DNA of 53,601 bases, filler included, from Streblomastix strix (Eukaryota), in assembly GCA_008636045.1 (NCBI GenBank). It is 3 parts of 3 records of this genome, joined end to end, with 100 filler letters (N's around TTAATTAATTAA, not from the genome) between each part and the next. Parts side by side here need not be neighbours in the genome. Positions count along the whole stretch, not along the records: positions 17,917 to 35,711 come from SNRW01000671.1; 2 more parts are not named here. One strand, given 5' to 3'. The stretch's first letter is position 1; every line of letters starts with the position of its first letter. The translations under genes and the position numbers were made by a program. Positions 15,898 to 52,913 of this stretch are shown piece by piece. The notes below the pieces were generated by a model that did not search any database, was not told the origin of the DNA, and was given only the letters and a program-made list of their open reading frames with translations.

Positions 15898-16774
15898 ATG
15901 TTTAAATCTATTAAGGATGATTTATGCAAATTAATAAGTACATAAATTCCTGGTTCAAGTAATATTCTTGTTGTATGTTCCTCAGAATGTTTGAGTGAAT
16001 TATAATATTAAAAATATGCTAATAATACTGATTTATATTTAATAAAAAATTAAAATTCCAATTTAATAAACAATGAGATATAGAAATGATAAAGTTTGTT
16101 AGAATCATATTGAATCAAATTATTATTTCTTAGCTAGAAATGATATTATTGGTCTTTAATGTTTAATTAATTAGAATTTGATGAATCCATCTGTAGGATT
16201 ACGAAATATAAAAGGACGAGATCGCATTATCAGCACTCTTCGCGAAACAATCTGTGCATCAATCGAAGAACCAAACTTCTTTTCATAGTTTGGTGTATCA
16301 GCACCTCGTTCTGTGATCTTGTATGGACCTCCTGGAACTGGAAAGACTGTATTGGCTAGAGCAGTAGCTTAAGAAACAAGTTCTAAGCTAATAACAATCA
16401 GTGGAAGCGATTTTGGGAAATCTTCAGAAGAACAAGGAATTGAAATATTAAAGAAAACATTTTAATAAGCAAAGAATAATTAACCCTCACTTATTTTTAT
16501 TGATGAAATCGATTCAATATTTCCATCAGTATCAGAATGCAGTGAATTTGGAGGAAGCGGAACAGAAAATGGATTATCATGAAGATTAATTTGGGAGATT
16601 GGAATTCTGATGGATGAATTCAAATCATAAGATAGAGTAGGTATAATTGCAGCTACGAATTGATTAGATATTGTTGATAGATCTCTTAGACGTCGTGGAA
16701 GATTTGACAGAGAAATTGAAGTTGGTGTACCAAGTGAATATGAAAGAAAGAAAAGAATTTTAAATTTTTTCTGA
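15898..16774 (+). pseudogene. Disrupted CDC48/AFG2(SPATA5)-family AAA+ ATPase, single domain
   Basis: Walker A LYGPPGTGKT, Walker B LIFIDEIDS and SRH 'AATN*LDIVDRSLRRRGRFDREIEVGVP' are present. In-frame TGA at 16580 and 16661, a frame break near 16085, and the ORF ends at TGA 16772 after one AAA domain. Confidence 0.8.
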
Positions 16775-17916: not shown

Positions 17917-18235
17917 CCTACAGATCCTTCTCATCTAATAGGAAATGAACAGATACTCTCCCAGCTCTATCTCCCATAGGGGGTGCGGAACTGCTATACG
18001 CCAGGAATTTGATTTCTCGAATTTGAGAGTTCTCCAATCGAATAAATCGTTCCATTCGAAGCCAACGAACAGATAGTTAGGAGCTTATACTGCCAAGCGA
18101 AAACTGCTTTGGACGCAGAGCCGAGTAGTTTGACATTCCACTGTCAACTTTCAGCCCCACCCATATCGACTTAGGCCTCCGTAACTATCCCGTTAGTTGT
18201 GCTAAATGCCAAAAATGATTGTCTTTGGAGAATTG
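17917..18235 (-). repeat. Copy of an interspersed repeat (mobile-element relic) also present at ~37335-37540
   Basis: GTTAGGAGCTTATACTGCCAA-CGAAAACTGCTTT-GACGCAG...TAGTTTGACATTCCACTGTCAAC is shared with 37383-37455. GC content is higher than the flanks. Confidence 0.75.
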
Positions 18236-19258
18236 TAATGATAAGACTAATTATTTTTATTATTATTATTATTTGAAAATTTTATGTATTTATTTCTGAA
18301 ATTTGCAGTATTTTTATTGAAATTTGTAAATTCTCAGTGAAATTGAACATATTTCGATTAAATTTTATTTATAATTATTCGTATTCATTTTATAAGATGA
18401 TTTTAAAAAATTCCTCTGTTAAATTTAACTATGCTTTCGAGAGTTATTTTATAATTTATAAAATTTATTATTTTATATTTATTCGGAAGATATTTAAACA
18501 ATGTATAATTATTAACCTAAAGAAATTTTGAATGGAATTTAAAATATTTCTATATAATTTACGAGTATATGACAATGGAGCTGTAATATTTGAATTTTTT
18601 GAAAATCCTTTCATTATCTTTAGTCTTAATGAGATAAGAAATAGTATATTACTTATTATTGGAGAATATTTTTTCGGAAATTAATTATTAAATCAATTAC
18701 TTCTCCATTTATACAGATTTTTCAAAATTTTATATTTAAGATTAAATGTTCTGCCTCCAATGCCAGCTGCGAAACATGACTAAGTAACTGTGTGAAAATA
18801 TGACAATTACTTAAATTCATCTTTAATAGCAAAAACATGGCTTAATGATATGCTGGACATATATTTTATTGTGCTTTTTCCAATTTTCAAAATGGCCGAC
18901 CCATAGAGCGGACACCCTGTGGTGGGGTCAGTTGCTACGGCCCAAGTGGCATGTATCAAATAAAGAGGTGAAGTAAGGGACTCCAACAGAGATATCCCTA
19001 CATAATATCCTTTAGGTGGTAATTACGAAAAAATTTTTTATATTTTTTTTAACCATTATCCATCATTAGAATTTTTTTGTTGATTTTTTTTAATAAATGA
19101 GCAAAAATTTGTACTTTATATAGAGATTGCGAATTATGTCTAATTCGCAGTTCCGTTTTTTGACAAATCTCTTTTTGAATTAACCGATATTGGCTGTATT
19201 AAAAAAAAACTTTTAACATAAAGATAAATTCTGTTTCATTAATTTTTGTTTCAATGAA

Positions 19259-21240
19259 ATGTCATTCAAATCTAGTGATTATCTTCGATGATTAGCAAAA
19301 ATGCAACATTCTGATTATGTTAGTGGATATTTGTAACTTGGTGAAGTTCTAAAATCATTATCCATTCACCCATAATCATTTTAAATATCAAAACAAAATT
19401 TCTTCGATTCTCCTATAACTGAACTTACATCTAATGGAGTTATATATATTAGAGCACCATTAGGAGCAAGAGGTAAATCTGCATGTTCAATGGTTCAAAG
19501 TTGTTAAGTAAATTGGACAATTACTATACCTAAAAATACCTTTGCGATATAATTAAATAAAACATATAATGACTGAAATACTGCAGGTAAATTAATCGCA
19601 CGAACTAATTTCAATAGTAAGAGGATCCATTAGCCGATTGGACTACAGATATGTCATAAGCTGAATAAGGATATTTTGGTAAAACAGCTTAAGGAATTGA
19701 ATCGTCAGAACATCTATAATTTTGGATTGGATTCTCAACTGCGTGTGGACCATTCTACTAATTTTAACTAATGAAAGATGCAACAGCATTATGGGGATCT
19801 GCAATCAATGCAAGATAATAAGCTGTAATTAGTTGATATTCTCTTAGTGATTTGTGCACTAAAAATAGCGTTAGCGTATTATCTCTTGAAAGTATAATTG
19901 AAGGAAAACATCAATGTGGAGCATTTATTGATATCCCACTTTGTGAAATTGATAGATAAGCAACTATTGAAGATTTAGGAATACCATTTTACTATAAAAT
20001 TCCTTTTGATGTTACGTTCAGTGGAGTACTTGATCTTAACTAACTAAATCTTTTATTTAATTCAATACCTGTTCTCATACGTAATTATGCAACAATACAT
20101 CTATAATTATAGATATAAGATTTCCTGTTAGATTGGAAAGTTGTTTGGCTTATCAAAAATGAAACAGTATAAAATAATCATTTAGCTTATCATATGATTC
20201 AACCTGAGAAACCTGATATTGTATATCTATTATCAGGAGATGATGCAGATGATCTATCGTATAAAAGATATAACGTAAGAATTGTAAATATATAAAATGC
20301 AGCTATTCTTGACAAGATACCACAAAATTCAATTAGTTAGATTGGAACAGCTAAATTTGATACATTAGAGATATAAAACGTATGTTTCAATATTGAAAAT
20401 GAAGAAGCTATAATTGGTATGATTCAATAACAAAAAATAATTAACTTTCCTATATAAGTATTTAATACATAATCATCGAACTTTCCATTTAGTGGATTTG
20501 ATAAAACTAGTGGATCAATGTAAAGCATTATGTCATTCTCTAACATAAAATCACTATTTATGACATTTGCTATGCACTAATATCCAACATGGATTTTCCC
20601 GGTACTATTCACAGGACTTAATCTAGTTATTGATTAGAATAATGTTATCTCATAACCATATAAATCATTAAATTAAGCAACTAATGGATAAATGTTTGAT
20701 TGCTTCGTTGATTAAGATGTTATTAGTGCCCCATCAGATCTATATCATTCACTTACATTCGAGAATTTGAATGTTAATGATAAGAAAAATAACTATTGAT
20801 TGATAGATAATGCCGATTAATATAAAACAGCAAACATATTTTATTTAACAACATTGTATGGTGGAAGTAAAGCTATTAGAACACTTTATCCCAATAAATA
20901 TATGCTTGCATGGAAATTGGCTACTGATGATTAATTTATGCGAGGATATAACTCTTCAAAGATAGGATCAAGAACTAATATATAAGTGATTATATAAAGA
21001 AATTTGACTAAAGGAATTATTTATACAACTAATATAAATTCATCATAGAACTAAAATGATTTCTAATAATTCATTGGAACTAGAGCATATCCTGATCCTA
21101 CTAAAGCATCTATTACTCTAATGATGCATTACTTGTGTGATACGTTTGTTAGAATTATATTTGATGATAGTTCAGTACCATTAGTACTAAATATTGAAGT
21201 TATTGGTGAGCTTGCAGGTGGAGCTATTAAACCTTAATGA
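19259..21240 (+). pseudogene. Putative major capsid protein (~660 aa, double-jelly-roll candidate), disrupted
   Basis: MSFKSSDYLR*LAKMQHSDYVSGYLQLGEVL...QFWIGFSTACGPF...YPNKYMLAWKLATDDQFMRGYNS...MMHYLCDTFVRIIFD...ELAGGAIKPQ*. Beta-strand-like throughout with no low-complexity tracts. In-frame TGA at 19289, 19574, 19834 and 20797, and a frameshift at ~19620. Confidence 0.6.
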
Positions 21241-21292
21241 ATTTACAAAAATAAATTTTTTTTTCATTGGGCATTTATGCCAACTGACAAAG

Positions 21293-21418
21293 TCAGTGAC
21301 ATATCTTTGATTCGCAAGCATATTTGATTGCTGCTTCTAAAATAGTTTTAAATATTGCATGCCAGTTAATGTTCAATTACTCAAGAGAATAGATTATTGT
21401 CTCATTGAATCTTTCCAT
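21293..21418 (-). CDS. Small (41 aa) ORF of the viral cluster
   Basis: MERFNETIIYSLEQLNINWHAIFKTILEAAIKYACESKICH*. It starts 20 bp after the fibre-gene stop, behind TGATTAATTTCAAAATAAACAAAATG. Confidence 0.4.
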
Positions 21419-21438
21419 TTTGTTTATTTTGAAATTAA

Positions 21439-22169
21439 TCAATTTGCAGATTAATTATGAATAGCATATGAATCACAAACTTAAACGCAAAAACCATCAG
21501 GCAAATAAAGCAAGCACATTGTATTTATTATAACATTTCCATTAGAATTAATATAACAATCAATAGGAATTGCACCAGTCCAATCTATTGGATAACCATA
21601 TACCTTTTATGCAAACAGAACAGCATTTAATGGTATGTTAGTTGATGTTCTAGTGAATTTTGGTTTTATAGCATTATCAACGATTGAAAATAAAGTATAT
21701 GCAGATTAATAAAAAGTATTAGGATCTGAATGTGTTATTTACAATGAAATATATACTCTACTATTTTATGTTGTTAATGTACCCTATATGCGTTATTCAT
21801 TCATTCCATAAGCAATTGATGAATAACGTGCATTTTCAATAGGTTCATAATCTAATTAATCTTTTTCAATAGTATCTCCATTAGCTAATAGAATTTAGTT
21901 ACTTGTTCCACCTTATTTAATAATTTTACCAGCTATTATAGGTTATAAAATGTCTTTACTCCACGAATAATCTAGTCAAAATGTAAATTAACAAAATCGA
22001 TAGAATTCTTAAAGAATTAACTTAAATAATTAAAATACTTAATAATCACATTATCAATAACTTACAATAATATATTACGTTCCTTAATTTATTTTTAAAC
22101 CTCTTCTTACTATTTTATTATTTTACTAACCTATTCTTACTAATTAATCTATTCGTCTTCATCAATCAT
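21439..22169 (-). CDS. Tail-fibre/spike-like protein (~243 aa; one frameshift at a T-run ~21950)
   Basis: N-terminal coiled coil, then 'FVNLHFDQIIRGVKTF' and 'IIAGKIIKQGGTSNQILLANG', then a beta-rich C-terminal domain '...GTLTTQNSRVYISLQITH...DCYINSNGNVII...'. Confidence 0.6.
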
Positions 22170-22263
22170 ATCTAAATCGCTTAATTATTATTCAATTTTT
22201 ATTCCAAAAATAATAAACAAAGATTCATAGACTCAAATAGTATAATTGCCATTCGTTCTACAA

Positions 22264-23045
22264 TCAAAAGTCATCTTTTGAAATCTCTGATGTAGGTGCA
22301 TCAGAGAAACGAACAAAGTTCTTGTTAACACAATACTGTTTCTAAATTGAATTATAAAGAACATTTTCAATAACTTATATACTAGCATTTTTAATTATTT
22401 CATCCATTACTCTTATTAGATCTTTCTTTTTATATGATTTACCTATGCATGAATGCGATCTCATTAATGGTTCATCTAATACAATTTCAATATTATTTTC
22501 ATTCTCTTAAGTAATAAATGACCAAAGTTTAATAAAATTATCAGATGAAAGTATAAAATCATCACCTTTTTTCTTGTTGTTACTGTAGCCCATGGCTTAT
22601 CAATGAGGAATTTCATTATTTCAAGATTTGGATGAGAAAGATAAGTGTTTTTAACTACTTCCTCACTGTCAACTTATGCAATTGTTCTATCAATTTGTTT
22701 ATATTTATCTTTATTATATTTGCTCTCATACTTAGTAATTTTTTATTTTGTAAGGATCAATTATTCAGGTGCAACTTGAATAATTTCATTCCCAGTTTAA
22801 ATTATATTTTCTTTTGGTTATAACGTATCATCAATGGTTTCGCAAATGATTTCACTTCGTTCAAGACCTATCTTCGGCGGCAACTCTGTTGCTATCTTAG
22901 GCATTGTCTTAATTCTGCTAATTGCATCATTGATCAATTACAATCTTATTTTATCTTCATCCGTTAATTCTCTATGTTTAATCTCAGACATTTATTTTTT
23001 AGTTTTTGACATGCGAATTGAGTTTCTTTCTATGTCCTTTATCAT
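22264..23045 (-). CDS. Hypothetical protein of the viral cluster (frameshifted at an A-run ~22570)
   Basis: MIKDIERNSIRMSKTKKQMSEIKHRELTDEDKIRL...LIDKPWATVTTRKK/GDDFILSSDNFIKLW...SEISKDDF*. Confidence 0.55.
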
Positions 23046-23068
23046 TTTCTTTATTTAAAAATATTCAA

Positions 23069-23743
23069 ATGGACTTACAACACGCATTAAAGAATTTTAC
23101 TGAAAACGGAACAATTATTGAATATTTTGACAACAGATATGTAATCCAAATTAAAAAAGATATTAAGGTGTTCGAGGAAAGAAAGAAGACACTTAAAAAA
23201 TTATCATAAACATAGTAGAATAAATTATTGTTATAAGCGAAAGGTGGGGTAGCTCCAAATAAAAATGTTTAAAAAGCATCTTAAAAATAAATTGAAGGTG
23301 ATAAAGATTTTATATCTTATGAACCATAAGAAGATTAAAATGAAAGCGATGAAATTTCAATAAGTGAAGTTAGGAAAAAACCATTAAAGAAATAAGTTAG
23401 AAATTACGTTTCCGCCGAAGGTAGCAACAGAGTTGCTGCTGAAGGTAGAAAAAGGGTTGTAAAAACATCAAAAATTTCATAAATTAATAATACTAATGCT
23501 CAACTTGATTTGGAAGAGCTATTTAGGTTGAGAACAGAAAATTCATTTATTAAACAATATCATTTAGATGCTGTTAAGCAAATTGAGAAATATAAATAAA
23601 AAGTTAAACGATATAAGTAACCAAAATAGATTATTGAAAAGGAAGAGCCATAAGAATAATAAGTTTAAGCTCCAAATGAATGTTAAGAGGAATCTGCTTA
23701 GTATGAAGAACATGATAAAGATACTAATTTTGATTTATATTGA
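23069..23743 (+). CDS. Hypothetical 224-aa Lys/Glu/Gln-rich protein of the viral cluster
   Basis: ATG 23069 to TGA 23743 is open with TAR=Gln: MDLQHALKNFTENGTIIEYFDNRYVIQIKK...DKDTNFDLY*. Confidence 0.7.
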
Positions 23744-23769
23744 TTGATTATTTTTGTTCCCTGTTTAAA

Positions 23770-24058
23770 ATGGATTATAAAATAGTATACACAAATGATT
23801 AAGATGAGGTAACATTGACAAGTAATATTCCTAATGATAATTATGAAATGCTTTAGATAGATAGTTGTTAATTATTCTTAACAGATAAACAAATCACTGA
23901 TTGCAAAGTTAATATTAAAATTGTTAACGACAAAAAATAAATACATTAAATAAATTAAATAACTTATTAATGATTATTGTAAGATACATAATACTACAGT
24001 AGCAAGAGAAGCTGAAGAATCTAGATATCTATAATATGAAGTTGATAATGATCTTTGA
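23770..24058 (+). CDS. Small hypothetical protein of the viral cluster (probably one frameshift)
   Basis: MDYKIVYTNDQDEVTLTSNIP...AREAEESRYLQYEVDNDL*. The span (289 nt) is not a multiple of 3. Confidence 0.5.
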
Positions 24059-24083
24059 TCATTATTTTTGGTAACCATTAAAA

Positions 24084-24275
24084 ATGGATTAGACTCGGTA
24101 TAATTATCATAAACAGCAAGAAACATAACTATTAAACGAATATAAACAAAAGACTAAAGAAATTTTAGATTTTGATATAGAACTAAAGTAAAAATAAGAA
24201 CAACATCTATATGCTTTGCTTGACTATACTCGTGGTTCAATATGTATAGCTGACGCTTATCTTAATAAAAAATGA
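24084..24275 (+). CDS. Small 63-aa helical protein of the viral cluster
   Basis: MDQTRYNYHKQQETQLLNEYKQKTKEILDFDIELKQKQEQHLYALLDYTRGSICIADAYLNKK*. Confidence 0.55.
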
Positions 24276-24599
24276 TTTTGATTATTTTTATTAGACAAAA
24301 CACACTTTAATAAACAAATTACCTTTTATCATTACCCCACTTAAATTTACTTTTTATTTATTAAGTAGTAACACTAGATAATCATAAGGATTAACGATAC
24401 AATTAATGATACACATTTACTATCACCGTTTGTTCGAATCGTAAACGAATTTGAATAATCCTTCGTAACTGTGCATTGGATTAATAATATGGATTAATTA
24501 TATGGATTAACGTTTATTTATTCATGATTCACATCTGTGTGGTGAATTAATGTATATATGAACGTTTATTCGATAATTATATGGAAGATTGGCTGTCAT

Positions 24600-25016
24600 A
24601 TGTTAAAAATCATTGATAAATAACTCAAATTGCTACATCTATTCAATTAGCGAAGGCAGATTGATCTGAAAATGAAAGCTTTTTAACATACGGCAAACTT
24701 CTTCTTTGTATACTACTAATCATCAATTCAACCAGCATTAAAAACACTTCAATTCGCTATTGATCAGTGCTATATTCTATTCGAATAATCATGCTCAATA
24801 ACACTCTCCAGTATGATAATGAAGAATCTTTTCTCTAGATTTCTAGATTTCGAAGCGAAGTTTGGAGATTCTAAACATGATTATCATGTAAAGATTCTTC
24901 TTTCAAGATATGCACAAACTGAAGTTGAAGACTAAAAGAAACGATGTGAAGAGATGGGAATTAAATATGAAGAAGAAGAAGAAGATAAGAGCTATGATGA
25001 ATAGGATGAATAATGA
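24600..25016 (+). pseudogene. Isolated C-terminal HAT-repeat fragment resembling rRNA biogenesis protein RRP5
   Basis: 'CYILFEQSCSITLSSMIMKNLFSRFLDFEAKFGDSKHDYHVK..LSRY' matches the pattern of the last RRP5 HAT repeat (LFER..L...KMK.FFK.YL.FE...G....VK). Acidic tail; no upstream S1 domains seen. Confidence 0.55.
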
Positions 25017-25137
25017 TTATGAAATTTGTTTTATTTTATTAATAAATAATAATGAGTGAAAATAAGTTTTTATAACATAAAATACTTTTTAATATTTTTA
25101 TTAGAATAATGATATAAGATACAATTGAGCTCGGCTT

Positions 25138-28100
25138 TCATTTGGGAGGGCATCCACCTTTGCAATAATAATGTCTATCTTGATTATAACAACAATAACT
25201 ATTCTTGCATATGTCCTTTTGACATTTTTCGCATTTCGTAATACAATGATAACAAGGCATTTTCCCACATTGGTTACAATTTTTCTTTGAACTAAAATAG
25301 TGATCATTGCATGATTTCTCATTGCATACAGGGCAAACTTTAACACATTCAGGGCAGAGATGCAAATTGCAGGAATGACATTTGCATTATTTATCTAAGC
25401 ATCCTTCACAGATGATCTTATTACACTTTGGGCATTTTGTCATACAACATGAACAAGTCAATTTGGTGCAAATTATGCAAACTTATCCACTGCTTGTATG
25501 ATCTGAACACCACTTCTATGAACAAGCATTGCATTACTTTGAGCATCCAATACACACTTATTAGTTGCATGTTGCACACATTGCACCACTAGAAAGACAT
25601 TATTTACAAACACTCTCTTTGCATTTGGGACATTTCTTGAAACATTCTTTACATCTCAATTTCTTACATATCTAGCATTCAATCCAATTGTTGTTGCAAT
25701 TATTGCATTATTTCTTCTAACAAATCTGGCATTGTTTGAAACAAGCTTCACAAACCCTTAAACTGCAAGAACATGTTATTCCTTTAGATAAACACCCTTT
25801 GCAAAAGTTCTTATCACATTTCTAGCATTTAATTTGACATTTCAAGCAAATTAACTTTTTGCAGGAATTGCAATTTGATTCATTTCCTAGACAATCTTTG
25901 CATATTATTCCATGTTAACTTTCATTCTATTACAATTCTTTTCTATAAACTTGCTATTCACATTTAGAGCATTTAGTTTCTTTAATTAAGCATCTTTTGC
26001 AAAAGTTCTTATCACATTTCTAACATTTAATTTGGCAATCTCTACATGTCATTTTATCACACTTGTAGCATTTAGATCCAGAATTAACACAGTTCTCGCA
26101 CCATAAATTCGAACATACTTGACATTTCTTAATACATTCTTGGCAGATCTATTTCTAACATCCATCACATTTAATTCCTTTTGATAAACATCCTTTGCAA
26201 ATATCTTTATTACAATTCTGACAGTTTGTTTTGCATTATGTACACATTATCAATTTGCATTTGGAACAACTTACACCAGTGTTAGCATGATCAGAACACA
26301 ACATCTATTAACAATCTTAACATTTCCTTATACAATATTCACAAATCAATTTATCACATCCAGAACATTTAATTCCTTTGCTTAAGCAAACAGTACAAAT
26401 GTCTTTATTGCACATTTGACAATTAGCTTTGCATGTATTGCATGTCATTTTGCTGCATTTATAACATCTAACTCCAGAACTTATACAACCACTGCACCAT
26501 TTGATTCGGCAAGCTTCGCAGTCTTTAATGCATTTCTAACAAATATTTCGTTTGCATCCTTCGCATTATATTCCTTTTTCTAAGCATGTTTTGCATATCA
26601 ATTTATTACATTTATAACATTTTGCACGACAAGCCTTACAAGTCATTTATTTACAATAAGAACAAGATAAGCCATCATCAACACATAATGAACACAAATA
26701 GCATTTACATCTATTACATTATTTACCACATCTTTTGCAAATGTCTTCTTAGCATATCTAACAATGTATTAAGCATTATTTGCAAGGCTACCTCTAACAA
26801 CTTGAACAGGTTGATCCAGATTCCAAACAAACTAAACATTTATTCCTCTTGCATGTTGGACATTGTTTGAAACATGTTGAACAGATTAACTTCTTACAAT
26901 CGGGACATTTAATCCCTTTGGATATGCACTATTTACAATATAAGTGATCGCACAATTCGCATTTCTGTAGGCAATTCTCACAGAATTACTTTAAGCATTT
27001 TAAACATGATGTGTTTGTTCCAATGCATGATGGACATTTAGTCTTCAAACATGTGCTGCATTTCTTAAGACATTCATGGCAATGAAGTTTATTGCAAATT
27101 TCACACTTTTTTAAACATCCATTGCATGATTATTTCAAACAGAATGTGCATTTGGTTTCATCATTCGCACATATTTGACATACTTACTTCTTGCAGTTTG
27201 GACATTCTTTCAAGCAAACTTGGTTGTGTGAAATATTGCAATGTTGACATTTATTGTTCTTATGGCATTAATCGCAAATATACTTTCCACTTTATTCACA
27301 TTTCTTAATACATTGTTTGCAGAATAGTATTCCACATGCATTACATTCAATTGAACAAGCTCTACATCTTTCTTTCTAACATTTCTCACATTTCATTGAT
27401 ACTCGATCTTTCTTGCACAATACACATACAAATGAACTTCCTCCAGAAGAAGGCATTTATTAGAGTTATTATTGGAGAATATTAATAAGATTATTACTTT
27501 CTCTCAGTTCTTACTCAATTAATTTAATTCTTTCTTCCTTTGTTCTAACTTTATCTTCACATCTCTAAAGTCTTTCTTGCATTATATCGCAATTATCACA
27601 ATGTCCACTTTGAATTTAATTCTCTTTGCTTGAAACTTTCGATCTTAATAAAGGAATTAGTTATTGTGCTTATCCTTCAATTGATTATTCTTCTCCTTCT
27701 TCTTCTTCAGCTCCTGAAATCACTTCAAGAATTTATATTATTTCATTTAATTCATTCTTATTCCAAATCAGTCTTTATGCAGTTGCTAATTGTAGTAAGA
27801 TGTCCAAAATAGCAGATTTCACATGATCAGAATTCTACTGCAAAGATGATGAAGATGATGATGAATTATCTTCTTGTTAAAGAATCTAAATTGCTTTATT
27901 CATGAATCCTCCATGTTATACCAGATAAGATTTTAATCCTTTCATTTCAATAATTAAATTGATTAGTGTGCTCTTGCCTGCTTTACAAATAGAGCTGTTT
28001 GGTGATTGAATTGTCTGAATGAGTGTTGAACAGAGGATTTCAATGTGCGCATCTTTTATTGGTTATCCAGATTTCGCATTCAAATTCAGAAGCACACTGA

Positions 28101-28525
28101 GACATAGTGCCTATAAATAGAAGAAGAATTATCTATTAAGAATAAATAATACATACTTATATCTCGGAACTAGTCTACATGCAAAATAATTTTACGATCT
28201 TATCAATCACAAGATCAGCTCCTTAAATAACTTCTTCCAATGCTGGAAAAAATTATTAAAATTATTCATAATTTCAATTTAATAAAACAATTGATCTAAT
28301 ATTTTAGCATACACGTGGATATAAGGAAGAGAAGTTATTGTAATGACTCTTTAAGCTTTTCTCCTTTCAAATGCTCCAAATTCCCAACAATCGAAAGTAT
28401 TTCATTTGGCTATAAAGTTAAAGTTAGAATTTGATATGTGAAAATAGAGGAAATTAGTTTACCTTAACACGAATAGATAAAGTTTCTCGAATTGATGCGT
28501 TTGATCTTTCTTCTTCTTTGTTCAT
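25138..28525 (-). CDS. ~1072-aa protein: helical (ARM-like) N-terminus, coiled coil, ~770-aa CXXC-repeat array
   Basis: Exons 28525-28463, 28409-28313, 28242-28157 and 28110-25138, with GT-AG introns of 53, 70 and 46 nt. They sum to 3219 nt and keep frame. The C-terminal part is continuous CxxC repeats. Confidence 0.8.
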
Positions 28526-30051
28526 TGCTCTACTTTCGAATCAAAAATAATAATTATGATAAAAAAAAATTAGTAATTTTTTTGATTGAGTAGGATCAAT
28601 TAGAATAATTTTAAGAAAATTACAATTATCTATTTCATAATTAACGGTTGTATGATTTAATTGTTGATAATATAGTTAATGCGTTCAAAATTCAAAAAAT
28701 CGCAAAATAAGAACAAATTAATGGAAATCAAAATAGGAAAAAAAAAGAAAAATTAGAATGTAATAATATAAATTATATATTGTTAAATGAAATTGTAAGC
28801 TTTGCAAGTATTTGCTCAATAGTAGTTATAAATAGCGGATTTTATTTAGTATACGATGACAATTTGCGTATCATAAATTAAAACGTTAACAGGCAAAATT
28901 TGGAAGTATTACATTATGTTTATTCAAATTAAAGAATTTAAACAATGAATTATATTTTTCTAATATATATAATATAAAAAATTAAATAAAAATGTTCGAG
29001 ACAAATGAGAAAAATGAAGATTAATCAATTTATTTTTTAGTTGCGTCTAATTGTATATAAATAATCTTATTAATATTATTTTTGGATAAAAAAATTAGTG
29101 AGTAAAAAATAAATTTACGCAATAATGCGAATTGTAAATCGAGGGGGAAAAAATTCGTTTAACTAATAATTCAAAATTTTAGTCAGTTTTTATTTCATAT
29201 ACCTTAGACGCTCAGAAACACTGACAATATAATGCCCATTAAAGAAATCATTTGTAAAATATATCTAATTGCAAAATTTTATATTTTAAAATATAATAAT
29301 TATTTATAGCTAGCATTAAGGAATTTTTTCAATAAAAAAAAATTTGGAAAAAATACTTTTCTGAGAAATCAAATAAAAATTTAATTATTTTCTCAGAAAA
29401 TCATTGAACTACAAAATTAAATATGTTTTCAAAATTTCAAAAAATTTGGTTTTGTATCTCTTAAGATATTTGTAGTTTTTATTCCTATATTTTTAATTTC
29501 ACTTCCAAAAATAATAATCAGTGAGTATGCAATAAAATTTATTTACACTGTTTTTTTATATAAATTTGTTTGAATTCATTTATTCTAAATTTTATCATGA
29601 AAAAATAATACAAATAAAAGCTAGAAATTTTAATTGAGTTTTTTACTAGCATAGTTAAATTATAATTAATTAATTTTTAATTTTATTTTGTTGAAATTAA
29701 ATTATTTATTACATTTTAATAATTATTACTAAATTATTTTTTGATAACTTTAGTTTGATTGATTTTAATGAAATTTAAATTATTAGTTTATTCTTCTCGG
29801 TCGAATGAAGTATATTTTAAACAAGTTTTTATATAAACTCAATTAACAGGACACATAATTTCATACAATTCACATCATTAATATGAAATTATCAATCCAA
29901 CAAAAGATAACAATTTTTCTTTAAAAAAACGTTATTCCGCCACTCCAGCGTATTTTTTACACTTAATAACCTATTTTTTATACTTTCACATATAATTATC
30001 ATATTTATTTCTTCAAATATTATTTTTTTATTAAAAAAGAATCAGAATAAA

Positions 30052-30735
30052 ATGAAATCCGAGTAAGAAATCTAAAAAACAGCAAGAGCCATAGTTTCTT
30101 TCACTGATTCATACTCATAAAACAAGCAAGGAAAGTAAAATGAATAACCAGAATCAAAATCAAAACTATCTCTTACATATATTGTTTCTTCTCTTAAAAA
30201 CCTTTCATAACAAATCCAGATGAACAAGTCATGCAAATAAGTGATTCAGATTCCGAAGTTTCTTCATTCTCTCACTGTACTTTCCAGTTTCAAACTTGAA
30301 ACTCAGTTTAGCAAAAAAATAAACAACCAGAGATGGGAAGTGAGACATTGGAGTAGACTGTGTCTTGCTTGGATTCAACATTATGGTGACGAATATGATC
30401 AAACAGAACTTGCAAATTATGGATATGGAAAAGTGATTTGCATTTTATTCAGCACAGCTGGAGGCATCGGCGAGGAACAGAATGAGGAGATCGGAAATGG
30501 ATTGATGTACATCTACGATTTCCTCAGAGAACTTCATAAAGGGAGAAATAATTAACCATCCTTCCAACCACTTCCATTACTTGCACGAATGACAGAAGAA
30601 TAAATAGAAGAAGAAGGAGCAAATGAAGAAGTTGAGGCCTAAATGATTAATTATGGACATAAATATTGTAATATCAAATATTATGCAAAATACGCAAAAG
30701 CTGTGATTCTGAACCATTTCATTCACAGGCGTTGA
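30052..30735 (+). CDS. 227-aa member of a lineage-expanded hypothetical helical family
   Basis: Intronless ATG 30052 to TGA 30735. Motifs 'FSTAGGIGEEQNEEI' and 'QPSFQPLPLLARMTEEQIEEEGANEEVEAQM' are recalled as typical of an expanded Streblomastix family. Confidence 0.8.
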
Positions 30736-31098
30736 ATATGACCGGTTTGGTACATTCAGTTATATATATATTTTTTCATTATTGAACAACAGTTATTCAT
30801 TTCATGCTTAATTATATATTTTATTTTTTAGTAACTTAATGAAACACTGTGAATGAATTTTTTAAACTTCAAATTATCCATGTGCTTCAATATCTGTACA
30901 TTTGACTAATAAAATAAAAAAATTGCAATAAATTTTGACAAAGTTTAACGTTTTGTAATGCTCTTTATTAATAGGTATATAAAAAAGAAGCCGTGAAATG
31001 AATTGACAGTTATTCCTCATTTGAGATGCGAGAAGAAAAAAAAATTCACTCACAAATCTATTCAGAGTAAAATAACATTAAAACATTCAGCACAATAA

Positions 31099-33494
31099 TC
31101 AGTCACTCAATCTCGGTCGCTTGTTGTTTTGCTTATCCAACATGAATCTAAACAACCGCCTCTGCGTCTTCGCATCAAACTCGTCCAAATCCAACTCGAG
31201 TTCTTCACCAGTTAATCTCTGAATATTATAAGTGGATTATATGGATTTTAAATATTATATATATTATTAATTAACATATTTAATATAATTAATTGATGTT
31301 ATATATAACATTAATTAATATTATTAATTAATATATTTAATATAATTAATTGATGATATATCATATACATCATTAATTAATATATTTAATATATCGTATA
31401 TAATAATCATATTATCCATATATTTCACAATACACACATTCTCAAATCCAGAAACTGTCTTCTTCAAGAACTGGACAATCTTGTCCATTTCTTCTTCGCC
31501 GATCTCCTCAAAATGCGCAGTTACAAATGCATTCTCCTCTTTGGTAAGTGGACTTGTGGAATTAGTTAATGAATGGAATATATAAATATATGAATATGTG
31601 TATAAATGAATATATGAATATATGCATAAATGAATATATGTATAAATGAATGGAATATATGTATAAATGGAATATATGAATATATGTATAAATGGAATAT
31701 ATGAATATATGCATAAATGAATATATGTATAAATGAATGGATACGATAAAAAATTAATAAATAAACAATGAATTTAAAGAAATATGAATAAATAATTGAA
31801 AGCTCAAATCAACATTGCATTTACGCAATTAAATGCTTATAAATTCATATATCGTAAATAACACATATAAATACATATATCATATAAATCATAACATATA
31901 CATCTCAACATACACATCATCATCCGCTTAAGCTATTTCCAGTACACCCAAGTCCTGTTATTATTATTAATCATCGTTTTCATCATCAAGATCATCCTCA
32001 AGGTCATCATCATCATCTTACGGGTACATCTACTTGTTCTGCGAAGGTGTAATGTAATTCATATTATTCATGCTAAGGTTGCCCATTCTTGGGTCCATCT
32101 AATTAATTGAGCTTATCGGTTCTGGTATTTAGTACTATTATTGGTACATTAGCCCATTGGGCGTTCTAATGTTCTATCTCCCTCTAGTAATTTGACGTGG
32201 TGTTTTATTCATAACAGGGTAGTATTCTATTTAGTTAGTAGGATCATATGGTTGTTGCTACTATTGCAACTATTACTATGGGTAGAGATACTGCTGATCA
32301 TACCGACTATCAACCTTCTGCTTCTTCTTCTTCGGATTCCGCGGTCTTTTCTTCGCTTTTTTAGTGTCTTAGTATATAAGAGGTAAAACGTTCATCCCCT
32401 TCTACTACGCCATCTACAGTTACATCTACCTGTCTATTATATACCCCTCCTATGAAGTCTGGGGCGATTTCCTTATTTTTGCAGCTTTCCCAGTTCGTGG
32501 ATTGACAACGGGACCTCCTTTCTCTAACACAACGCCTTCTATGGCTTTAGAAGCTGCAACTGAAGCTGGACGTGGCTTTCTTTTAACCAAAGGCTCAGAT
32601 TGCAAGGTTTGGTTGTGATGTGATTATTGAGATGCTTACTGCTAATATAGTCCTTATTATCCATCAAGCAGTTATTATTATTATTATTACTATTACTGTT
32701 ATAACTACATTTATTACCCAGGGTTTATCTTGCTCGCCGCTAACAGATGCCTCGCTTCTGATATTTTCGCTTCCTCCACTTCTTCATTCGTCCACCATCC
32801 TTTCTCAACGACATGCTCAAGTTTCTCTGCGAAAATCTTCTGCAGGTCATTCGCCATTATTGTGACTAGCGTATCCTTCTTGTTGTATAAGTAGCAGTTA
32901 TCCCACACTAAGTGAACAGCATCAAGCACTTCTGACGCGCTTCGAAACATGGGCTGTTTCACTGATTGGGCCACAATATCAGATGGGCGAAGAATTTGCG
33001 GGTTTTTGGTCTTCTTCGGTGTAGTGAAGGTCGGGATTCGGTCTTTGATGGTCCCCAAATCGATTGGGCGTTTGACTATTGTGAAGTAGTCGGGGATGTT
33101 TAGTTGGATTGGGTCAACTGGGGATGAAAAGGGACCCCCTGCTTTGTGCTGCATTAGGTCGATGATGCATTTGCGGAGGTAGCTGTGGTGTAGATATATG
33201 TGCATGTGTATGTTTATTATATTTAGAGAGTAAGAATTATATATTAGAAATTTATTGAAAAAATATATATATTATAAAAATTATTAGAAAAATTATTTAT
33301 TTGTTTGAAAAATAACAATACTTTAGAGCATCAACAGTTCGACGGTTGAACTATCCACTGTTACTTGAACCAACTTGTCTTGTTGGAGATTCATTATTAT
33401 CATCTGATGAATCAGTTCCTCCTTTGTTTGGTTTAGAATTTTCCATTGAACCAAGCACATCCATGAGCTTGTCATATGCGCCGGTATCAGCCAT
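31099..33494 (-). CDS. BET/GTE-type protein: single bromodomain plus ET (NET) domain
   Basis: Exons 33494-33322, 33182-31914, 31552-31438 and 31218-31099. Bromodomain 'GPFSSPVDPIQLNIPDYFTIVKRPIDLGTIK...LVWDNCYLYN'. C-terminal ET 'PLTKEENAFV...MDKIVQFLK...ELELDLDEFDAKTQRRLFRFM'. Confidence 0.88.
31570..31742. repeat. Intronic minisatellite (GAATATATGTATAAAT-like units)
   Basis: Tandem degenerate units inside intron 2 of the bromodomain gene. Confidence 0.85.
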
Positions 33495-34321
33495 TTTAAC
33501 AAGCTGGAATAAATTAAATTTGAGTTGGAAATAAAGATAAGTGAATGAAATAGATAAATATAATCAGATAATATAAGTAAAAGAGTGCAAATTATGGCAA
33601 TTAAGTTTTTAAAAAAATCAATAAATGTATTAATTAGACAATTTTTAAGATAATTTATTTCAAAATATGATCAAATGCCATATATTAAAAAATAACTATT
33701 AATAAAACAAAAAATAATTTGATTGTAACTGAAAAATATGGTGCGAATGGCGATATTTGTTGAAAAAAATTAAAAATGTTTCTGTGCTCTATACATATTT
33801 TAAATAACTTTACAATATGTCATAAATCATATAAATAAATAATTTCAATAGTACAAAATATATTATAAAATAATAAAATAGACAGATCAGTCATAATGTA
33901 GGCTTTTTTAGTAAATTTCAATTTAATCGGATGATCAAACGTTATATGTATAGATTTTGTGAATAAACTATAATTATATATATAAAGAATACAATTCTTA
34001 TAGTATAAGCTGAAATTAAAATGTAAATGTGCCAAATTAAAAAAAATAAAAGAATCAAGCTGGAATTGAACCTGTGATTTCTTATATAATAACAAAAATA
34101 AAAGCAAAATTAGAAAAATAATCTCGCCAAAATAATTTCGATTCCCCATAAACACAAGCAAGATTAATTTTAATTTCTGAATATTTACTTAGAATCGATT
34201 GTTTTTTTTAATGAAAAAGTGATGTTAAAAATAATAATTTGATAAAAAATAATTGATAGACTTTTTTTCTGTTCTATTTAACATAACGAATATTTAATAA
34301 TAATAAAATAAATAAATAAAC

Positions 34322-35711
34322 TCATTCAGGATTAATGTTAATAATCGTAATTTCGCTGAATCCAGAAGTTCGAGCAGGTGTTCCAGCTGATCCTGTTCCT
34401 GGATTCACATACATATTCCTTGCAAAAGACTCTTTTTACTCCAAAATATACACAATGTCCTTCTAATTATTATTACTCCTATAATTCTATTATTTATTAA
34501 TATTACTCTATTTACGATTATCTGATGTTATTGTCAATAGTCTTGCTGGATGCGAGAAGAAAAGTCTTATGAACAATGGATGGATGGGGAAGACTTGTCC
34601 ATTGTGGGTGTGACCTGCGAGGAATAAGTCACCGCGAAGGAGATCCATGGATGACAACCAGGCTTCTGTAATATATATATTATATATATTATATATATTA
34701 TATTGATTATAGGCATGAATAAATTATTTGTTTGTTAATAAATATGAATAAATTATTAGTTTATTAATAAAAATAATTTAATTTGGATATAATTTTTAAA
34801 TCAAATTCTTATTATTTATTATAATTAATGAACAAACCATCATGCGGTCGGTGATGAAGTATAATTGTATAAGGTGAATCAGAAGACTCATTTTAGAATA
34901 AAGATGTATTTGTTGAATAAAGATTATTAACATCTTCAATGAATTAGTCTTTTGGTCCATCTTCAATTCCAATTATTCTTAAGTTATTTGTATTATTATG
35001 ATTTGAGTCGGATTAATTTATATGGTTATCATTTAAACTGGACGAATCTGAATTGTGAAGTGAAATATTAATAAATTCATTTGTTAATAAACGAACCTGG
35101 CAAAAAATGAAAAATTAGAATAAAAAACAAATTGAAGTTAAATAAATTAAATCATGAATGAATTATTTAAAACAAAAATTAATTAGCATAAATAAATATA
35201 AATTATTCTATATCACACATTAGGGAAATGTTTAATCATCTTCTCTACATTATCTCTGCCAGACATAATATCATGATTACCCTGCAATTATAATAATAAT
35301 TGAAAATAAATTATCAACAAAGATATTAACTATGAATAAATATAAAATAATATCACACCATCACAAAGAATACTCCATGTTTCGCTCGAAGTTTTGATAG
35401 AGGTTGCATTTCAGGATATGCATTATATTACTCATTATTTGAATGTAGTATTTTTCCATTGACTGATTCATCCTATTTAACAATTCCAGTTCTATCAACA
35501 AGGTCTCCAGTAATACAGATTATATCTCCTTTGAGAGTATTCACTTATGATACAACCTTATTAAGGAATGATCGACTTCTAGAGCCAATATGTATATCTG
35601 AAATGTGGATTATTCGCAGTGATTGTTTGATCTTAGTGCTCCTGAATGAATAATAAAATAATAGTAAAAAAAAATAATAATTGTGAAAAATTACATACTT
35701 CAAATAGATAT
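34322..35711 (-). CDS. Calcineurin-like metallophosphoesterase, YkuE/TMPPE type (5' truncated, several introns)
   Basis: Motifs HISDIH, ITGDLVD, GNHD (across intron 35282-35358), LHHRP, LAGHTHNGQ and 'YVNPGTGSAGTPART..SEIT'. TGA at 34322. Confidence 0.88.
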
Positions 35712-37249: not shown

Positions 37250-38560
37250 TTAGAAGAGTCATTGTATAACGTGGAAAGACTATTTTTTAAAAACTAGAAA
37301 TCTTTCTGTCGAGAGTCTGACGTTTCAAACTAAGCTGATCTCCATTAAATTAATTCGTTCCATTTGAATCCAAAAAGGGGGCGTTAGGAGCTTATACTGC
37401 CAAACGAAAACTGCTTTAGACGCAGGGTTGGATAGTTTGACATTCCACTGTCAACATTCAACCCCACGCGTATCAACTTAGGTGTCAGTAACTCTCCTTT
37501 TCGTTGTATTAGGTACGAAGTATGATTGTCCTGGAGAACTTTTGATCTGTTTGGAATAGGTTTCATTTCTTTCTTTACTTCCGGTTTTGAATGAAGTAGT
37601 CTCGTTCCGCTTCCAAAATTTCTGTTCTGATTCTCATTCATGTTATTGGTATTCATCTCTATCCGTAGTTATTATACCTTTGCTTTCTTACCTCTCTTAT
37701 GTCTTCCTCTATTTTTTCTTAACTTAAGTAATTTCAATCTCCTAGGAGTCATCACTTTAACTTTAATTGTCCATTTCCTTATGGATTTCTTATAACTTCT
37801 CTTTCGTTAGTAAGATCTTGGCTTTAGTTGAATTCTTGTTTTTATATTATTTATCCATCTTTATATGTTTCCTTTTTCATCTTGTACGGATTAGGAATCT
37901 TTAGCCTCTTCAGAGTTCTCGCTCTGGCTCTATTTGTTCATTTCATTGTCATCGAGATCTGAAGGACAGACTAAGTCCCCAAATATTGTCTCATGAACTT
38001 CCTATTCAAATCTCAATTGCATCATATCTCTTTCCTCTTGCAACTGGCGGATTTATTTATCTAGGTCATCCTCTTCATAAGGATCGACCTCTCTAATTTG
38101 ATATAGTTTTTGTGGGCTTTAAGGTTATATACGATTTTCAGGTTACATTGGAGGTTATTAATGTTGATGGATTCTATTCTTATCATTTATTATTTGTTAT
38201 TCAAAGAATGAGGGTTAGTTATTATTAGCTAAGTCTGGAGGTGGATAAGTAAAGTTTATCTTAGAACTGAAGTCCTGGTTAAAATTTATTCTCAGCGATG
38301 AGATTGTTGTATTTATTAGAATTGCATCTTGCATGTCATTTGTATAATTTGGTAGTGGTTCTCGTTCGTCAACCTCTAGAGCAATTGCTTATTCTATGAA
38401 ATTAAGGAGATGTGGACTTTAAGGATTTGTACGATCTACTTACGTTGTAGGATTCGAGTCTATTTAATCTTTCCTCAAGTTTCTCGTTTGCTCGATTCTC
38501 TTCTTTTCCAAAGTCCTTACTTCGTTCTCCTTGTCCAAATTATCTATAATGCTAAAATTT
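37250..38560 (-). mobile_element. Interspersed repeat with a degenerate charged ORF (possible retroelement gag-like part)
   Basis: Long, mostly open minus-strand frame rich in E/Q/K/P with at least one frameshift. Its 3' part is homologous to 18025-18232. No RT or integrase motif was seen. Confidence 0.4.

Positions 38561-46174: not shown

Positions 46175-52913
<6,739 letters not shown>

Follow-up and report, generated by a model that had tools for sequence, protein, structure and literature searches.

Fibres of phage type are already known on Polinton-like viruses (PLVs) of protists (Bulzu et al. 2025, PMC12220804; 10.1101/2022.07.28.501842, on the Ltf protein of Gezel-14T), where one has been found in particles, and similar genes are labelled in PMC8502044. 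The fibre-head fold is also present in virophage and Marseilleviridae virions (10.1101/2023.01.23.525297). Endogenous viruses of the termite-gut protist Streblomastix strix have been placed in a Metamonada group that uses genetic code table 6 (Bellas et al. 2023, PMC10120064), a report in whose accessible parts no fibres appear and whose main text never uses the words 'fiber', 'fibre' or 'tail'. Within the limits of our literature search, no description of the fibre family discussed below was found in the accessible text of PMC10120064, nor any mention of S. strix fibres in that of PMC12220804 or 10.1101/2022.07.28.501842.

We consider it quite probable that the S. strix locus analysed here is a frameshifted member of a multicopy gene family whose product once served an endogenous Polinton-like virus of Streblomastix as its trimeric attachment fibre. 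The locus has in common with the Metamonada-group viruses its host, its table-6 code and its multicopy capsid-like genes, and with the PLV fibres a modular phage-type gene, a capsid-encoding protist element and a proposed role in attachment. Unlike the PLV fibres, the S. strix fibre is short, carries a shaft module that is in neither Pfam nor PHROGs, and is written in the table-6 code; Pfam detects in it neither an S74 chaperone nor a collagen, LamG or PTR domain. The S. strix fibre is likely a further case of a published phenomenon.

A frameshifted, probable fibre gene and its neighbours

The window, by which we mean the whole stretch of 53,601 nucleotides that was analysed, is a composite of several contigs with N spacers between them. 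The fibre gene lies on the piece at 17917-35711, which also holds eukaryote-type genes. Under table 11 the window yields only short ORFs, whereas reading by table 6 (TAA/TAG = Gln) reveals long ones. In the two pieces of the fibre gene, every Gln codon is TAA or TAG (23/23); hence, the gene is not bacterial.

On the minus strand, the gene is divided between two frames. Frame A begins at an ATG at 22169 and encodes a Gln/Glu/Lys-rich, helical or coiled-coil-like N-terminus, the same as in paralogue P0016, followed by shaft motif 1 (V.L...Q.I.G.KTF type, 21948..21992); this 5' piece spans 21948..22169, after which the frame runs into unrelated sequence. Frame B encodes shaft motif 2 (K.GGT..Q.L.A.G type, 21877..21924) and a 135-aa tip, predicted to be a fibre-head beta-barrel (21439..21846, stop codon included), and ends at a TGA at 21439-21441. 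No single ORF spans both motifs; between them lies a four-base A run (21947..21950) that marks the frameshift. The first-pass annotation was right about the position of both motifs, which are found there on the minus strand under table 6, but the two do not belong to one intact gene at this locus. In paralogues P0005, P0016 and P0079 the same junction is read through in one frame, which makes a frame-restoring intron superfluous, and related contigs have one extra base at the junction in three of four runs (12, 4 and 3 contigs). No piece among those listed bridges the window's own junction, and for the missing base itself decay and assembly error are not separable. The window tip also has six substitutions at conserved columns that are absent from every paralogue, among them a Gln in place of a Trp that 47 of 48 share. 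Given these private substitutions and the broken state of the neighbouring gene, the sequence indicates that this copy has most likely decayed. It yields no full protein.

The N-terminal coiled coil claimed earlier is plausible only, judging from its heptads, of which the best register places hydrophobic residues at 10 of 14 a/d positions against 2-8 in other registers. We saw no signal peptide by eye. Sequence searches of the gene and its paralogues against Pfam, and against PDB and PHROGs as the first reading had suggested, gave no significant match.

Directly downstream of the fibre gene, tblastn identified a small conserved ORF of about 41 aa (21293..21418, minus strand), whose peptide also comes after the fibre in many of the predicted paralogues. 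A broken capsid-like gene (19259..21240, plus strand), convergent with the fibre gene, has at least four in-frame TGA codons and one frameshift. It has 240 relatives; all of the 120 listed are from S. strix (120/120), and UniRef calls four of those 120 'Major capsid protein'. Among 95 fibre genes, seven have a locus tag adjoining one of these 120 relatives, where 0.41 would be expected. The family matched nothing in Pfam or PDB, and six of its locus tags were not found in the searched part of the PMC10120064 supplement. From automatic names and context, we conclude that the neighbour is likely a capsid gene. Upstream of the fibre gene are two further multicopy genes of the same element (22264..23045, minus strand; tblastn), the first of them broken and neither with a family match, and then intronless-looking ORFs and fragments (23069..25016, plus strand) that are probably the rest of the element fragment; a fetched protein matches only the start of the first. 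We saw no polymerase or replicase, integrase, ATPase or terminal repeats in the window's fragment of about 6 kb. The element, which is integrated, multicopy (95 fibre and 240 capsid-like relatives) and written in the host code with TAA/TAG as Gln, is likely a roughly 6-kb remnant of an endogenous virus.

A standard-code metagenomic contig (L173:1558-5120) encodes a 31% relative of the capsid-like gene, followed by a small ORF and a P-loop ATPase. By their motifs, the small amphipathic ORF may be protein-VI-like and the P-loop gene A32-like; Pfam, which gave weak P-loop matches only, does not bear this out, and the S. strix protein P0098 weakly matches the P-loop gene (E 1e-4). This contig possibly represents a relative of the virus that is free or has a different host.

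The window has several other features. A short non-coding stretch of higher GC content that could form hairpins (18880-19030) lies immediately upstream of the capsid-like gene and could be the end of the element or a small RNA. Related repeats at 17917-18300 and 37383-37530, on two contigs, are 82% identical over 148 nt and look like degraded coding sequence; they are probably a transposon remnant, in the first case beside the viral fragment. A 935-aa host ORF (25138-27945, minus strand) has Cys-rich repeats of about 66 aa at 198-nt spacing and no Pfam match. A very long ORF (46386-52913, plus strand), which has kinase motifs, a putative membrane-spanning segment and an end like that of an RNase, may resemble IRE1. 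Finally, a 205-nt inverted pair, 83% complementary, lies at 163-367 and 15961-16165, 15.6 kb apart.

The shaft module within and beyond S. strix

A search with the 3' piece gave 95 matches among 107 candidates, all of them named Streblomastix strix (95/95). Family members are about 245-290 aa long and share a layout of variable N-terminus, two-motif module, optional insert of about 105 aa and 135-aa tip. Among 99 sequences, the junction takes the long form, with the insert, in 36 and the short form in 42. Shaft, insert and tip types appear by eye in mixed combinations, and shaft identity is only moderately correlated with tip identity (Spearman 0.40, 210 pairs); predicted splicing and chimeric assembly may contribute to the mixing. 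No Pfam match to the Peptidase_S74 C-terminal domain was found in the window pieces or in seven paralogues, and the gene ends at the head. An extended search with the shaft region gave three matches, all from S. strix. Longer fibre-like families with the same module are also present in this species (P0096, P0097, P0098, P0238, P0239, P0245, P0255 and P0324), some with repeated R.DH.H motifs; these families have no match in the window. S. strix holds a whole repertoire of phage-type fibres.

When the paralogues were compared with 50,697 phage records by tblastn, matches were weak and confined to the module: an unannotated gut phage (E 0.04-0.05) and the crAss-like phage cr112_1 (E 0.8), the remaining rows being unrelated noise. 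Profile comparison aligned the module with cr112_1 gp39 (YP_010111417.1) over 51 ungapped aa at 41% identity (probability 90), and with the gut-phage protein, whose C-terminus matches a PHROG tail-fibre family, over 56 aa at 36%. Both gp39 and the gp53-like tail-fibre proteins of Flavobacterium contain the two motifs ungapped and with identical spacing, but these proteins are 390-1550 aa long, have other tips and share about 45-50 aa with the S. strix fibres. In an unannotated gut phage record (L001, MT836261.1), the tail-region genes are open only with TAG read as Gln.

We searched more widely by pattern. The motif-2 pattern occurs in at least 121 stretches in IMG/VR, and a strict motif 1 lies directly upstream in 0 of 127 matches; hence, motif 2 mostly travels alone. 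Among 48 scanned ORFs that carry the motif, 13 contain an S74 chaperone at cutoff, and at 40 of 80 carrier loci a neighbouring gene is of the tail, head, connector or lysis type, by a hand count covering 145 of 157 neighbour ORFs with PHROGs, which are blind to eukaryotic-virus neighbours. The two-motif pattern was found at 12 IMG/VR loci, 11 of them fibre-like by eye, and at 33 loci in genomes. Of the latter, 31 have a translated motif, and 29 of these are titled Bacteroidota, a leaning that agrees with the Bacteroidota connection proposed initially; all but one of the 29 are from Flavobacteriales or Chitinophagales (28/29), the exception being from Bacteroidales (Bacteroides). Three loci (L128, L138 and L160) were treated as chance pattern matches. 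Fourteen genome loci, L142 and 13 similar ones, represent one Flavobacterium protein type, encoded by a conserved gene in which a gp53-like fibre tip comes behind the module (in 2/2 proteins scanned). At L142 it is followed by a small gene that, by its motif, may resemble a tail-fibre assembly chaperone, and no other phage genes were evident by eye in 10 kb. About 13 of the genome-locus proteins have, by eye, a signal-peptide-like start and the look of cell-surface proteins. Many bacterial-genome carriers of the module are not phage genes.

Since the pattern was derived from the query, we tested the 34 columns outside it. Their mean BLOSUM62 score was 0.80, against -0.58 +/- 0.22 in permutations, none of which reached it (0/100,000). 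An HMM built only from 38 non-Streblomastix segments gave 25 bits to the frame-B piece, as much as 57 bits to intact paralogues and 8.8 bits to motif 1 of the window copy alone; the best unrelated window ORF scored 5.8 bits. We conclude, at the level of sequence, that the module of about 45 aa is truly homologous to a repeat in fibre-like proteins of tailed phages. The first-pass annotation had recognized the motifs as such, and gp39, the S74 carriers and the tail-gene neighbours bear this out.

A profile search free of the pattern's bias covered 1.84 billion proteins and found 130 matches. Of the 30 that we looked up, 11 belong to S. strix, including several of other fibre families, and the other 19 are without a species label; S74 is present in 7 of 51 presumed outside matches. 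The tip scored in only 29 of 104 new matches, all of them close to named S. strix proteins (29/29). The sole outside match over the tip region, P0296, was set aside because it had no score on the tip HMM. Thus, outside matches cover the module and tip matches are all S. strix-like, making the shaft widely shared and the tip an orphan by sequence. In IMG/VR, the long-form alignment found no relatives among 105 pattern matches.

By profile and by pattern alike, the module was detected in 1 of 400 Bacteroidota sampled, seed excluded, and in 0 of 400 from the phylum of the Limnobacter locus, too rare for an enrichment test. A tree of the module (103 rows, 45 columns, no clade test) places the window's family on one supported branch and a second S. 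strix group on another, and resolves no donor lineage. Acquisition from the protist's own gut symbionts or their phages, as first proposed, finds no support in the tree, which names no donor, or in the Bacteroidota matches, which are nearly all from Flavobacteriales and Chitinophagales. The module connects tailed phages, crAss-like ones among them, with proteins of Bacteroidota and with a protist virus.

Predicted fold and variation of the tip

We modelled the tip from 64 sequences. The model (pLDDT 78.8, pTM 0.75) is all beta, with eight strands in 135 aa, close to the beta-rich tip of about 130 aa described at first. A full-length monomer model of P0009 (pLDDT 36) was discarded. Foldseek with the tip model returned no match at E<=0.001 (best 0.003) but ranked phage heads first. 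In a second, Foldseek-independent fold search of 48,161 chains, the top 15 were viral heads, needles or spikes, led by the bIL170 head (2fsd; Z 10.3, rmsd 2.3, 104 residues) and PSA gp15 (6r5w; Z 10.3, rmsd 2.8, 103 residues), and followed by the Pa223 needle, p2, NMV_189, TP901-1, Zav_19, and the heads of reovirus and adenovirus. Unrelated chains began at rank 16 (Z 5.8), and another such run gave a similar outcome. The two matches at Z 10.3 share just 8-9% identity with the tip. The model has the beta-barrel topology of the bIL170, PSA gp15, p2 and TP901-1 heads (Z 7.3-7.8 for the last two), from which the S. strix tip differs in its low identity (8-16%), in having no sequence-level match and in belonging to a eukaryotic element. 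Viruses of eukaryotes supply the same fold class in Zamilon Zav_19 (7qrj, Z 7.0), noumeavirus NMV_189 (7qrr, Z 7.7), reovirus sigmaC/sigma1 (Z 6.7) and adenovirus knobs (Z <=6), but these score below the phage heads and have different stalks. We conclude that the tip is predicted to fold as a viral receptor-binding or fibre-head beta-barrel, in line with the receptor-binding spike suggested earlier. A shared fold by itself is no proof of function; the modelled fold agrees with the independent evidence from the shaft.

It had been suggested that the tip may be hypervariable, with a conserved shaft and swappable tips among paralogues. Instead, 37 full paralogous tips align with the window tip at 47-85% identity (median 75) with few gaps, and among 21 proteins with both parts, mean pairwise identity is higher for the tip (74%) than for the shaft (69%). 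Given this, and since variation is highest in short patches near residues 18-20, 45-47, 69, 83 and 113-114, the tip is not hypervariable. From strand order and the topology of such heads, most of these patches would lie at the distal end of the modelled barrel.

Proposed function of the fibre

If the family did encode the attachment fibre of an endogenous PLV, three chains would join through the N-terminal coiled coil and an interlaced shaft module, a homotrimer suggested by the matched structures. The N-terminus would anchor the fibre to the capsid, and the head would recognize a receptor at the cell surface, for which a glycan of the protist is the likeliest candidate; the small variable patches and the optional insert of about 105 aa may tune specificity and length. 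The module would have entered the virus lineage from the phage and Bacteroidota gene pool, either directly or via other eukaryotic viruses.

An unlikely alternative, in our estimate, is that the fibre binds the Bacteroidales ectosymbionts coating the protist, so that the virus docks on bacteria first. The closest folds are indeed phage heads (Z 10.3, against at most 7.7 for eukaryotic-virus knobs), the shaft module has its affinities mainly in Bacteroidota and crAss-like phages, Streblomastix bears filamentous Bacteroidales (PMC2717939), and entry by way of bacteria has been proposed for the virophage DSLV2 (PMC12724248). However, the best-matching heads come from phages of Gram-positive hosts and are only 8-16% identical, the same fold also serves eukaryotic viruses, and none of the phages searched has a relative of the tip. 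In its fullest form, to which we also attach a low probability, this scenario would have an oxymonad virus build its spike from Bacteroidota-phage parts, bind the Bacteroidales coat and enter via the symbionts, its hundreds of endogenous copies recording the tuning of four tip patches to changing symbiont surfaces.

We give a slim chance to a purely structural decoration or spike of the capsid that binds no receptor, or to one whose receptor is on a helper giant virus. Among the top fold matches is the Pa223 tail needle, and NMV_189, which has the head fold (Z 7.7), sits directly on capsomers; patchy variation on a conserved scaffold, together with mixed shaft, insert and tip types, is better suited to binding. 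The module's presence in secreted-looking Bacteroidota proteins, and the single-cell metagenome that PMC10120064 gives as the S. strix source, would fit a host-domesticated adhesin for holding symbionts or mis-binned bacterial or prophage DNA. We consider this very improbable, with the TAA/TAG Gln codons largely refuting a bacterial origin, and with no signal peptide seen by eye, copies that adjoin a capsid-like gene and a broken copy in the window.

The attachment-fibre reading offers a function for about a hundred 'hypothetical' proteins of S. strix and for several sister families, and the comparison defines a 45-aa fibre module absent from Pfam and PHROGs. The head, small, well modelled and available in many natural variants, is suited to a binding test on a protist that is wrapped in bacteria.
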